This document shows, piece by piece, positions 23,046 to 29,538 of a stretch of DNA of 52,582 nucleotides; the stretch's first letter is position 1, and each line of letters begins with the position of its first letter. Source of the stretch: a virus (Duplodnaviria; Caudoviricetes); IMG/VR virus record IMGVR_UViG_3300013006_001903, positions 1-52,582 of that record; one strand, 5' to 3'. The position numbers and the translations under genes are program-made. Below the pieces are notes generated by a model, which did not search any database, was not told the DNA's origin, and saw only the letters and a list, made by a program, of their open reading frames with translations.

Positions 23046-23065
23046 AAACTTTTTAAAGTGCTTTT

Positions 23066-27889: not shown

Positions 27890-28249
27890 TCATGCTTGCC
27901 GAGCTAAAAAATACTCTTTGTATGAGTCGCAAGCAAATGCATTTTTAACACTTTGTTTGACTGTTTCTAAGTCAAATTGTTTACAACTAAAAACATCTAA
28001 ATAAATGTGTCCTAAACTATCAACAAAATGTGCAACTATACTACTGGTGACAATAATTTGTATAACAGTAAATCCTGCTTTATCTATTAAATTTTCAGCT
28101 GTGTATTCAATGTGAGGTTCACCAATTGGTTGCATGTCAATATCGCGAACTAACTGTTTTATCCATTTATTAACATTATTATAATCAGACATTAGTGTTT
28201 GATCACAATTACTACAATCTAAAATTAAATGATAACCCCAATAACTCAT
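27890..28249 (-). CDS. speD: S-adenosylmethionine decarboxylase-like proenzyme
   Basis: MSYWGYHLILDC...AGFT..QIIVTSSIVAHF...YLDVFSCK. The ORF track's longer start runs through tRNA sequence. Confidence 0.75.
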   Translation of the reverse strand: MSYWGYHLILDCSNCDQTLMSDYNNVNKWIKQLVRDIDMQPIGEPHIEYTAENLIDKAGFTVIQIIVTSSIVAHFVDSLGHIYLDVFSCKQFDLETVKQSVKNAFACDSYKEYFLARQA

Positions 28250-28281
28250 ATTCTGGTATGCTACCATTGCATTATACCCCA
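28250..28281 (-). pseudogene. 5' half of a tRNA (Gln-like) fused to the speD start
   Basis: TGGGGTA-TA-ATGC-AATGGTA-GCAT-A-CCAGA-AT, then the speD ATG at the anticodon position. Confidence 0.6.
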
Positions 28282-28285
28282 TTTT

Positions 28286-28380
28286 TGGTAGTAGACTAGG
28301 GATTCGAACCCTACCGTTCCAGCCCATCTGACCAGTCTCCAGAGTTTATAAGTCTCCGCCGCGCACCAGCGCCGTCTACC
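28286..28380 (-). tRNA. Atypical tRNA with TAT anticodon (Ile-AUA?), long variable arm, short D arm
   Basis: GGTAGAC/GTCTACT-A-CCA; T-arm TAGGG-TTCGAAT-CCCTA; CT-TAT-AA loop; 95 nt. Confidence 0.7.
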
Positions 28381-28393
28381 ATTTTTTCAACTT

Positions 28394-28467
28394 TGGCTCC
28401 GGTGGAGAGAATCGAACTCCCACAGGCAGATTTGGAGGCTGCCGTACTACCACTATACTACACCGGA
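28394..28467 (-). tRNA. tRNA-Trp(CCA)
   Basis: TCCGGTG/CACCGGA-G-CCA; loop CT-CCA-AA. Confidence 0.85.
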
Positions 28468-28474
28468 ATAAACC

Positions 28475-28549
28475 TGGCGATCCTGCGGGGAATCAAACCC
28501 CGATATCCGACTAGACAGGCCGGTATAATAATCACTATATGACAGGACC
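28475..28549 (-). tRNA. tRNA-Asp(GTC)
   Basis: GGTCCTG/CAGGATC-G-CCA; stem CCGGC/GTCGG; loop CT-GTC-TA; atypical D-loop GA and T-loop TTTGA. Confidence 0.8.
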
Positions 28550-28555
28550 TAAACT

Positions 28556-28643
28556 TGGTGGAGGCTCTCCGATTCGAACAGAGAAGGCACTAAGACAACG
28601 AATTTACAGTCCGCCCCCGATACCATTACGGGACTAAGCCTCC
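28556..28643 (-). tRNA. tRNA-Tyr(GTA)
   Basis: GGAGGCT/AGCCTCC-A-CCA; loop CT-GTA-AA; long variable arm. Confidence 0.9.
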
Positions 28644-28709
28644 ATATTGAAACACGCTTTTTAGTTCTTTCGACCTCTCCGCGTCCGGTAAAGGTAATGT
28701 GCTTGAATA

Positions 28710-28785
28710 TGGTGTCAGTGTTGCTGACTAAGGAATCCCGACGCCCAGTGCTAAGAGAACACCTATTCGTCACCCTACTCTTACC
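28710..28785 (-). ncRNA. Putative 76-nt CCA-terminated non-tRNA RNA
   Basis: GGTAAGAG...GTCAG-CAACA-CTGAC-ACCA; bounded by spacer hairpins inside the tRNA operon. Confidence 0.5.
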
Positions 28786-28820
28786 ATATTGAAGCACACT
28801 AAACCTAATGTGTTTGAATA

Positions 28821-28908
28821 TGGTGTCACTCTCCTGACCACTTTTAACGGATGGGGTAGAGCCTTGAGTGACGTGTCTTAGACAGGCTTTATTCCTGGTT
28901 ACGTAACC
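28821..28908 (-). ncRNA. Putative 88-nt CCA-terminated non-tRNA RNA
   Basis: GGTTACGTAACC...GTCAGGAGAGTGAC-ACCA; 3' end homologous to 28710..28785. Confidence 0.5.
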
Positions 28909-28913
28909 ATATT

Positions 28914-28998
<85 letters not shown>

Positions 28999-29011
28999 AA
29001 ATATATACTTA

Positions 29012-29100
29012 TGGTGCCCGGGGCCGGAATCGAACCGGCATGCCGTTTTAGTGGCGGCAGATTTTAAGTCTGCTGTGTCTACCGATTTCACCACCCGGGC
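29012..29100 (-). tRNA. tRNA-Leu(TAA)
   Basis: GCAGA-CT-TAA-AA-TCTGC; CCA. Confidence 0.93.
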
Positions 29101-29116
29101 AATTAACAACAATAAT

Positions 29117-29175
29117 TTTTAAAGAACAACTGCTAACTAAGTATCTATTATATGACAGCGATCTTGTGTTGTCAA
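29117..29175 (-). promoter_or_regulatory. Consensus sigma70 promoter plus boxA antiterminator for the tRNA operon
   Basis: TTGACA (29175-29170)-17-TATAAT (29152-29147); TGTTCTTTAAAA at 29128-29117. Confidence 0.85.
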
Positions 29176-29201
29176 TAGCCTGTGGCTAATATAGCACATA
29201 T

Positions 29202-29509: not shown

Positions 29510-29538
29510 ATTATATATTCCTGTGTCTCTGTTGTCAA
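29510..29538 (-). promoter_or_regulatory. Consensus sigma70 promoter for tRNA-Ser
   Basis: TTGACA-17-TATAAT. Confidence 0.88.

Follow-up and report, generated by a model that had tools for sequence, protein, structure and literature searches.

Introduction

The tRNA cluster of phage T4 ends in two stable RNAs, rnaC and rnaD (species 1 and 2), which are annotated as non-tRNA species and lie on the same strand as the tRNAs. The structured non-coding RNAs GOLLD and ROOL likewise occur among phage tRNAs, with a function that is described as open (PMC12286853, PMC5737381). Here, we analyze a tRNA operon on the minus strand of a 52,582-nucleotide stretch of viral DNA (hereafter the window), a 52.6-kb fragment of the IMG/VR virus record IMGVR_UViG_3300013006_001903 whose CheckV completeness is only 2%. 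The stretch is contained in lake, freshwater, and river metagenome runs. Units, hairpins, and tRNAs of this operon are all encoded on the minus strand, and its center consists of two tRNA-sized units and two hairpins that overlap their ends:

28821-28908, minus strand: unit 1, 88 nt, between tRNA-Leu(UAG) and hairpin 1
28784-28823, minus strand: hairpin 1, 17-nt arms and 6-nt interior, sharing a CCA with unit 1 and a GG with unit 2
28710-28785, minus strand: unit 2, 76 nt, between hairpin 1 and hairpin 2
28642-28712, minus strand: hairpin 2, 17-nt arms and structured 37-nt interior, sharing a CCA with unit 2 and a GG with tRNA-Tyr

A first-pass annotation, made without database searches, had described the two units with their lengths, GG starts, CCA ends, and hairpin overlaps, and this description is accurate to the base. 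The T4 species resemble the units in kind, and rnaD ends in CACCA; they differ in length (139 and 119 nt compared to 88 and 76 nt) and in that no such hairpins lie between the T4 genes. GOLLD and ROOL are 400 to 800 nt long and represented in Rfam, whereas the units are shorter than 90 nt and outside Rfam 15. We show below that hairpins of this type, which have apparently not been described before, are widely used to separate RNAs in phage tRNA operons and that units 1 and 2, judged from their sequences and those of their relatives, are conserved, structured, non-tRNA RNAs, which would make them independent small RNA genes within the operon. The balance of the evidence leans, in our view, toward the hairpin being RNA-level punctuation and a processing signal for non-tRNA cassettes in polycistronic tRNA operons.

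Results

Two hairpins share their ends with the neighboring RNAs

Hairpin 1 is composed of CCATATTCAAACACATT, 6 nt, and AGTGTGCTTCAATATGG, and hairpin 2 of CCATATTCAAGCACATT, 37 nt, and AGCGTGTTTCAATATGG. Each hairpin opens with the CCA that closes the preceding unit, and its final GG provides the first two bases of unit 2 (hairpin 1) or of tRNA-Tyr (hairpin 2). Four copies of the arm motif exist in the window, all of them at this locus, compared to 0.60 expected, and none of 100 shuffles reached four. The predicted folding energies, −12.2 kcal/mol for hairpin 1 (z −4.6) and −20.4 kcal/mol for hairpin 2 (z −3.5), were not matched by any of 200 shuffles in either case. The interior of hairpin 2 belongs to a family that recurs in four other loci with compensatory changes, among them a switch between CCG/CGG and CGG/CCG and the replacement of a GAAA loop by UUCG.

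The hairpin is a conserved family in uncultured phages

The 3′-arm pattern, with 16 specified bases, is found in at least 120 uncultured viral contigs, and 71 of the 72 loci newly fetched by the 3′-arm scan hold both arms. A script that allowed up to three mismatches per arm located 314 hairpins in 271 loci (2.4 Mb), 293 of which could be assigned to a strand by their own asymmetry. These hairpins keep company with tRNAs: 261 have a same-strand tRNA within 400 nt, five have a tRNA only on the opposite strand, and 27 have none. Moreover, the placement is precise, with 142 hairpins starting exactly at the CCA of a tRNA called by ARAGORN and 50 ending in the GG that opens a tRNA.

Across the family, the stem has 17 bp and usually 18, the additional A-U pair being formed by the flanking bases (171/276). 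Pairing reaches 92 to 100% at all stem positions except one in a set of 143 distinct arm pairs. Position 7 is U-A in 81, A-U in 45, and G-C in 4, and positions 6, 9, 12, and 14 also switch pair type. The exception is position 8, which is paired in only 59%; the C-C mismatch here, which the first-pass annotation took to be conserved, is present in both window copies, but the family mostly has G-C (64 of 143), followed by A.C (37) and C.C (13). At position 16, a U.G wobble is kept in 112 of the 143 arm pairs. When 88 pairs of neighboring hairpins were compared, the two arms of one hairpin fitted each other better in 55 cases, the arms flanking a cassette in 7, and both equally in 26. This preference indicates that the selected structure is a stem-loop between RNAs and not a stem around each RNA, and the covariation at position 7 (and at 6, 9, and 12) together with the own-arm fit argues that the stem is selected as a structure. 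We therefore rejected a flanking stem as the general rule (55 versus 7); for unit 2 in the window it may still apply. The window and L134 belong to the 7 exceptions, and in the window only the C.C interrupts the complementarity between the 3′ arm of hairpin 1 and the 5′ arm of hairpin 2, which are nested in the minimum-energy fold of the whole stretch. The sense strand folds better than the antisense strand by 4.7 kcal/mol on average (better in 221 of 272 hairpins; Wilcoxon p 1.5e-28), which, in combination with the U.G wobble at position 16, suggests that the hairpin acts at the RNA level on the sense strand.

Among 50,697 records of cultured phages, BLAST with the operon matched only tRNA parts in 291, none covering 80% of the query, BLAST with a canonical hairpin returned nine partial matches at chance level, and the motif occurred in none of the records. 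The search of bacterial and archaeal genomes gave 101 one-arm stretches, nearly all of them single matches, about as many as a 16-base pattern should give by chance. Two hairpin arms each are carried by three short contigs (L284, L294, and L330) that were binned into freshwater metagenome-assembled genomes, Planktophila and Crocinitomicaceae among them; these are probably mis-binned phage contigs and possibly hint at hosts. A T4-type major capsid protein (E ~1e-142) is encoded by two complete, terminally repeated hairpin-bearing genomes (168 and 172 kb), and none was found in three further, incomplete records. The group of the window phage takes in T4-like genomes of ~170 kb as well as larger ones. 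Also noted were tmRNA genes, including the permuted type, in hairpin-bearing phage contigs (L015 13913-14302, L010 8496-8776), and group I intron-like sequence in or beside tRNA genes of relatives (L134 2960-3286, minus strand; L129 386-705, minus strand; L051 13185-13378), which Rfam confirms only in L051 (53.4 bits), those in L134 and L129 having been recognized by eye.

Hairpins gather around diverse non-tRNA cassettes

Ordinary tRNA-tRNA junctions in the arrays measure 5 to 9 nt and have no hairpin; the hairpins cluster in runs spaced by 50 to 300 nt of non-tRNA sequence. Roughly half of them (143/293) follow an ARAGORN tRNA, with Lys (54), Gln (22), Glu (21), and Leu (16) in the lead, and the other 150 follow something that ARAGORN does not call a tRNA. 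The tRNAs for Lys, Gln, and Glu share a modified wobble uridine and are often targets of anticodon nucleases; their dominance before hairpins could also be a chance effect of conserved gene order. Clustering of the non-tRNA sequences upstream of hairpins, of which there are 139 distinct 80-nt ends, produced 99 clusters, and 21 of these have at least two distinct members. Few cassettes recur as often as units 1 and 2 in this sample, which is biased, some loci having been fetched with unit patterns. A T loop is present in a few of the clusters, which may represent odd tRNAs.

One cassette is a known RNA. In the relative L072, a GOLLD RNA (201 bits, 1768-2325) occupies the cassette position and ends 4 nt before a window-type hairpin whose CCA closes it, and the GOLLD 3′ end is likewise joined to a hairpin in L201, L225, L226, and L238. 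The hairpin may define the 3′ end of GOLLD in these phages. The L072 GOLLD also carries an embedded tRNA (1836-1900). As for the dedicated processing signal that had been proposed for the window, a sequence-conserved element does lie exactly at the RNA boundaries, but it is a general separator and not specific to the two units.

The almost invariant arms contrast with what they enclose and separate: 249 distinct interiors (median, 51 nt; range, 4 to 152 nt in 272 hairpins) form 173 clusters, including families with compensatory changes of their own. This diversity of interiors and cassettes (173 and 99 clusters) around near-constant arms would also be expected if the hairpins worked mainly on DNA, as attC-like or MITE-like sites of recombination or mobility that shuffle RNA cassettes inside one phage genome and from one to another and whose RNA structure is a by-product. 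In the same direction point the changing neighbors of unit 1, which is preceded by tRNA-Leu, another tRNA, another cassette, or a hairpin and followed, beyond a hairpin whose interior differs among loci, by unit 2, tRNA-Tyr, or a UAU tRNA, and the arm variants of the window and L134, which pair crosswise as they would after insertion or exchange. We nevertheless regard a mainly DNA-level role as rather unlikely, given that (i) hairpin orientation tracks the tRNA strand by 261 to 5; (ii) the CCA phasing is exact in all 123 distinct cases after a tRNA; (iii) the U.G wobble is conserved and the sense strand folds better; (iv) the arms of one hairpin covary; and (v) no recombinase and no integrase- or transposase-type domain was seen among the 20 window proteins scanned, a scan that was not aimed at recombinases and did not extend to whole genomes. 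In addition, cassettes could be shuffled by homologous recombination at the repeats even if this is not what the repeats evolved for.

The interiors bear on a further alternative, in which the stem-loops are themselves the products: functional small RNAs of ~85 nt with a constant, protein-bound 17-bp stem and a variable head, freed by tRNA processing, with units 1 and 2 as unrelated passengers. With a median interior of 51 nt, the whole element is about the size of a tRNA, the interior families show compensatory changes and exchanges of GNRA and UUCG loops, the odd position 8 and the U.G at position 16 resemble features of many protein-binding helices, and the element begins at the CCA of one tRNA and stops at the point where RNase P would cut the following tRNA. 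Yet 13 of 272 hairpins, including hairpin 1, have an interior of less than 10 nt and hence no head, and the idea leaves the concentration of hairpins beside non-tRNA cassettes unexplained; we hold it to be unlikely. Both the DNA-level role and the stem-loop product are compatible with the hairpin also serving as punctuation between RNAs.

Units 1 and 2 are conserved RNAs with covarying structures

We collected homologues of both units by pattern scans of viral and metagenome contigs, followed by nhmmer over the fetched loci. Unit 1 (GGTTACG...GTCAGGAGAGTGACACCA) gave 37 nhmmer matches in 409 fetched loci, its own locus counted. Its 21 distinct variants, of ~85 to 90 nt, have a mean column identity of 88%, while the adjacent tRNAs of the same contigs can differ considerably. 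Several of its invariant stretches, for example, AGGAAUAAAG, AAGGCUCUACCCC, and UCCGUUAAA, are needed by no helix. The structural model comprises a 5′ hairpin (P1, GGUU/AACC), a small hairpin (UGUC/GACA), a 7-bp stem (GUCACUC/GAGUGAC) followed by ACCA, and two weaker helices. It is paired in 98.8% of 483 cells, compared to 28 to 45% with slid partners, and has three compensatory pairs, located in P1 and the 7-bp stem, with a covariation score that none of 500 shuffles reached. A local hairpin GUCA/UGAC at the 3′ end was considered and rejected: L387 and L138, in which both strands of the 7-bp stem have changed and those of the competing local hairpin have not, are better explained by the long-range stem. 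This stem begins 36 nt inside the unit, and the 5′ and 3′ ends do not pair with each other.

Unit 2 (GGTAAGAG...GTCAGCAACACTGACACCA; ~76 to 78 nt) is represented by 10 distinct variants across 21 loci. Here, the model contains a pseudoknot, formed between the 5′ strand UAAGAG and the loop (7 nt) of a two-part hairpin in the interior of the unit, and a 3′ hairpin, GUCAG-CAACA-CUGAC (5 bp with the loop CAACA), that is followed by ACCA. Its 219 cells are paired in 95.4%, compared to 31 to 49% when slid; nine pairs have changed on both sides, and the covariation score was reached by none of 500 shuffles. The search for homologues and covariation that the first-pass annotation had called for thus yielded 21 variants and three compensatory pairs for unit 1, and 10 variants and nine such pairs for unit 2. 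In L003 (~960-985), with equivalents in L009 and L047, we also noted a 20-nt "mini cassette" (GGTAGCCTGAAAAGGCT plus CCA or CTA) downstream of a consensus promoter and ahead of the hairpin in front of unit 2; it is maybe a minimal leader or a cassette remnant.

Conservation of this kind bears on the proposal that the units are decayed tRNA genes or non-functional spacer and the hairpins selfish palindromes. The units do have the size of tRNAs, lie within a tRNA array, and fold no more stably than shuffled sequence. Against this, unit 2 is identical and unit 1 is 94 to 99% identical in contigs whose flanking tRNAs clearly differ, long unpaired segments are invariant, and the helices have compensatory changes, so that the proposal is already disfavored and, in our view, very improbable.

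None of the searches for known families recognized the units or the hairpins. ARAGORN and Rfam (release 15) at the gathering threshold called no gene in 28644-28913, and an Rfam search of 28200-29200 up to E=10 returned nothing within units or hairpins, as was the case for the units and hairpins of 11 relatives among the matches listed (the best 150 of 167 gathering-score matches). Two hairpin-rich stretches of relatives gave, at E up to 1, only sub-threshold look-alikes of microRNA (miRNA) precursors, and GOLLD (RF02032) has no match in the window. The first-pass annotation had stated that a match to a known Rfam family would remove the novelty, and no such match was obtained. Its statement that the units have no cloverleaf is upheld: they have no T loop, and neither ARAGORN nor Rfam up to E=10 detected a cloverleaf. 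In the consensus folds of both units, moreover, the 5′ end is not paired beside the 3′ end, unlike in an acceptor stem. nhmmer profiles of the units found nothing in T4 69000-75000 at E up to 10, and BLAST against the same region gave only chance words of 7 to 13 nt. The analogy with T4 drawn earlier holds in kind, with rnaC and rnaD lying in a tRNA cluster and two hairpin-bearing genomes being T4-like, but does not extend to sequence homology.

CCA is constant after tRNAs and variable after other RNAs

All 123 distinct hairpins after a tRNA have CCA, compared to 86 of 139 distinct hairpins after a non-tRNA, the remainder of which includes 18 with CUA and 12 with UCA. The variants of unit 1 have CCA in 11, CUA in 9, and UCA in 1 of 21, and those of unit 2 have CCA in all 10. 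In L138, the partner arm is altered such that pairing with the changed CCA position persists. As far as can be read from these sequences, CCA is strictly selected only where a tRNA needs it, and its variability in unit 1 and before non-tRNA hairpins indicates that, for unit 1 at least, it is a feature of the hairpin and not of tRNA mimicry.

These counts bear on the suggestion that the units are CCA-ended tRNA mimics, either decoys for tRNA-targeting enzymes or acceptors for aminoacylation. The stems that such an acceptor would place before its ACCA are supported, with 7 bp in unit 1 and a 5-bp hairpin in unit 2, although before processing the CCA forms part of the hairpin stem; every variant of unit 2 has kept it, and T4 rnaD shares the CACCA end. 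A mimic is nonetheless hard to reconcile with CUA or UCA in 10 of 21 variants of unit 1, with the looser CCA after non-tRNAs in general (86/139 versus 123/123), and with units that have no T loop, no cloverleaf, and no pairing of the 5′ end beside the 3′ end. The idea, which goes back to the first-pass annotation, is weakened for unit 1 in particular, and we consider it improbable.

Operon layout and neighboring genes

The remaining features of the operon are, in the direction of transcription, as follows:

29147-29175, minus strand: sigma-70-type promoter, TTGACA-17 nt-TATAAT, 12/12 consensus, ~50 nt upstream of tRNA-Leu(UAA)
29012-29100, minus strand: tRNA-Leu(UAA), called by ARAGORN; Rfam tRNA, 59.4 bits
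28914-28998, minus strand: tRNA-Leu(UAG), called by ARAGORN; Rfam tRNA, 46.1 bits; unit 1 starts five bases later
28560-28643, minus strand: tRNA-Tyr(GUA), class II, long variable arm, unusual D arm, read by eye
28478-28549, minus strand: tRNA-Asp, downstream part of the operon, ARAGORN/Rfam
28394-28467, minus strand: tRNA-Trp, downstream part of the operon, ARAGORN/Rfam
28289-28381, minus strand: odd tRNA-like gene of 93 nt, anticodon loop CUUAUAA (UAU), long variable arm

No terminator-like site was found on the minus strand from the promoter down to 27800. tRNA-Tyr was recognized by inspection from its GTA anticodon, long variable arm, T arm, and 7-bp acceptor stem; it was missed by ARAGORN and by the Rfam tRNA model and scores 28 bits on the tRNA-Sec model, and at the equivalent position of L134 ARAGORN calls Tyr. 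The UAU gene (28289-28381) similarly has 30.1 bits on the tRNA-Sec model and no match to the tRNA model; ARAGORN calls it Ile(tat) in relatives including L032 and L010, and a long-armed tRNA-Ile would be unusual. A 187-aa open reading frame at 28549-29112 (minus strand) was rejected as a gene: it runs through tRNA-Leu(UAA), tRNA-Leu(UAG), and the hand-read tRNA-Tyr, and relatives carry 1-nt and other non-triplet indels in it.

A second 12/12 sigma-70 consensus promoter lies at 29510-29538 (minus strand) ahead of tRNA-Ser, and similar consensus promoters precede the arrays of L003 and L047. Between the promoter and the first tRNA of the operon, at 29116-29128 (minus strand), stands a boxA-like motif, TGTTCTTTAAAAA, with two mismatches to the rrn boxA consensus. 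Such motifs are not enriched in the window as a whole (32 found, 30 expected). Motifs at a like relative place in L003, L047, and L192 (GCTCTTTAACAA in L192) would be its counterparts, and others, likewise between promoter and first tRNA, were noted at window position 23050-23062 (minus strand) and in L082.

Directly downstream of the operon is a gene for S-adenosylmethionine decarboxylase (27890-28249, minus strand; Pfam E 1e-15), the start of which falls within a look-alike of a tRNA 5′ part, GGGGTATAATGCAATGGTAGCAT..., at 28230-28268. The other genes of the window, with tRNAs scattered among them, are mostly for sugar- or lipid-type biosynthesis and other metabolic enzymes, including radical SAM/B12 proteins, a DegT aminotransferase, several glycosyltransferases, epimerases/dehydratases, a ketoacyl synthase, a sulfotransferase-like protein, and an APS-kinase-like protein. 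No processing enzyme beside the array was found among the 20 window proteins scanned.

Discussion

The reading that we favor, of the hairpin as RNA-level punctuation and processing signal, draws on the conservation of units and hairpins, on covariation, on strand bias, and on the exact phasing with tRNA ends; from these observations, we infer the cutting, the enzymes, and the functions of the units. In the proposed mechanism, an uncultured lake phage would carry units 1 and 2 as cassettes in a polycistronic tRNA operon with its own promoter, and a stem-loop in the precursor would unite the upstream RNA's 3′ end and the downstream RNA's 5′ end in one helix, the first three bases of the family stem being the upstream CCA and its terminal UGG often supplying the GG of the next RNA. 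The stem would mark the cleavage site in the precursor, with a host endonuclease specific for double strands or for the stem base, acting together with RNase P and 3′ trimming, as the most plausible agent. Cutting at the stem would free RNAs that do not have the tRNA shape needed by normal tRNA processing. For tRNAs, the normal enzymes could finish the work, whereas for non-tRNA cassettes the stem would be the only defined landmark, which fits the concentration of hairpins around such cassettes. The simplest candidate would be a host RNase III-type cut in the 17- to 18-bp helix: like an RNase III substrate, the stem offers about two turns of double-stranded RNA, with 17 bp, the A-U extension in 171 of 276 hairpins, and sometimes a further extension into the interior. 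Bacterial RNase P prefers U(−1)/G(+1), and the junction U|GG on the 3′ side of the stem has exactly these bases; the 5′ side follows A-CCA.

In lake metatranscriptome libraries, assembled contigs match the operon without a difference at 28543-28773 (tRNA-Tyr, hairpin 2, and most of unit 2) and at 28877-29127 (the 5′ part of unit 1 and both tRNA-Leu). With a depth of 2 to 3, parts of the stretch uncovered, and some molecules spanning RNA boundaries, these matches speak for presence only.

Several points weigh against a processing signal or limit what the evidence for it can carry. The RNA-library matches are assembled contigs, perhaps DNA bearing, which are unable to show ends, levels, cleavage, or discrete transcripts. 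A phage RNase III gene was found in none of five records, two of them complete, so that such an enzyme would have to be the host's, and a stem that is near invariant across many phages exceeds the needs of a generic double-strand nuclease. Around unit 2, the flanking arms have a slight pairing advantage over the two arms of each hairpin, both in the window and in L134. The per-position pairing percentages of the family (92 to 100%) are partly enforced by a search that allowed no more than three mismatches per arm, part of the energy difference between sense and antisense strands comes from the U.G asymmetry by which the strand was assigned, and all family counts describe biased samples, the loci having been collected with unit and hairpin patterns. 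Unit 1 varies so little that it offers only three compensatory pairs and no strong statistics, and single-sequence folds of the units are no more stable than those of shuffles (z +0.21 for unit 1 and −0.50 for unit 2).

The near-invariant stem, the odd position 8, and the fixed U.G suggest a reader more specific than a general nuclease. Extending this thought, the 17- to 18-bp stem could be a universal adaptor read by one dedicated phage or host factor and would then define a modular RNA-cassette system of lake phages, in which tRNAs, GOLLD, the two units, about a hundred further families of small structured RNAs, and variable-headed hairpins are released from one precursor by a common, hitherto undescribed processing rule and in which the repeats also allow cassettes to be exchanged. 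We put this forward tentatively, as a possible but not a probable view. As for the units themselves, our guess is that they act by binding a partner through their invariant single-stranded segments and not as tRNA mimics.

If the stem is indeed a processing signal, it would provide a testable rule for how non-tRNA RNAs are excised from tRNA operons, and small RNAs of phages could be catalogued directly from metagenomes; should a specific factor bind the stem, its identification would open new phage RNA biology. Independently of this, the ~17-bp stem is a sequence handle for RNA boundaries in tRNA islands and yields dozens of new conserved small RNA families. The locus also touches the open question of how T4 species 1 and 2, GOLLD, and ROOL mature and function.

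Three known systems resemble the hairpin in part, and the first two are the most similar to it in the way they work. In bacterial rRNA operons, RNase III cuts stems that are built from the sequences on both sides of a mature RNA. These stems are alike in being long helices in a polycistronic precursor, and the window promoter is followed by a boxA-like motif; they differ in enclosing the mature RNA, whereas the hairpin stem stands between two RNAs, its own arms covary, and its sequence is conserved far beyond the known needs of RNase III. In murine gammaherpesvirus 68, pre-miRNA hairpins directly follow a tRNA-like element and are freed by tRNA 3′-end processing. That system, with RNA polymerase III transcripts of a eukaryotic virus and the Dicer pathway, is unrelated, and the only link we see is that the best sub-threshold Rfam matches of window-type hairpins are generic miRNA precursors. 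With attC, REP, and MITE elements, the hairpin shares imperfect inverted repeats with an odd conserved position and a variable center, and a location between cassettes; its arms have neither the attC core nor the REP tetranucleotide, and its orientation follows transcription.

GOLLD and ROOL share the setting, and the accessible parts of the articles on them do not mention the hairpin (PMC12286853, PMC5737381). The same holds for hairpin and units in the literature searched, supplements apart, which included, besides these two, PMC5389517 and bioRxiv 10.64898/2026.07.01.735769, each in its accessible parts. Non-tRNA RNAs in phage tRNA operons are known from T4 and from GOLLD and ROOL; what the present locus adds to them is a widespread element at their boundaries.

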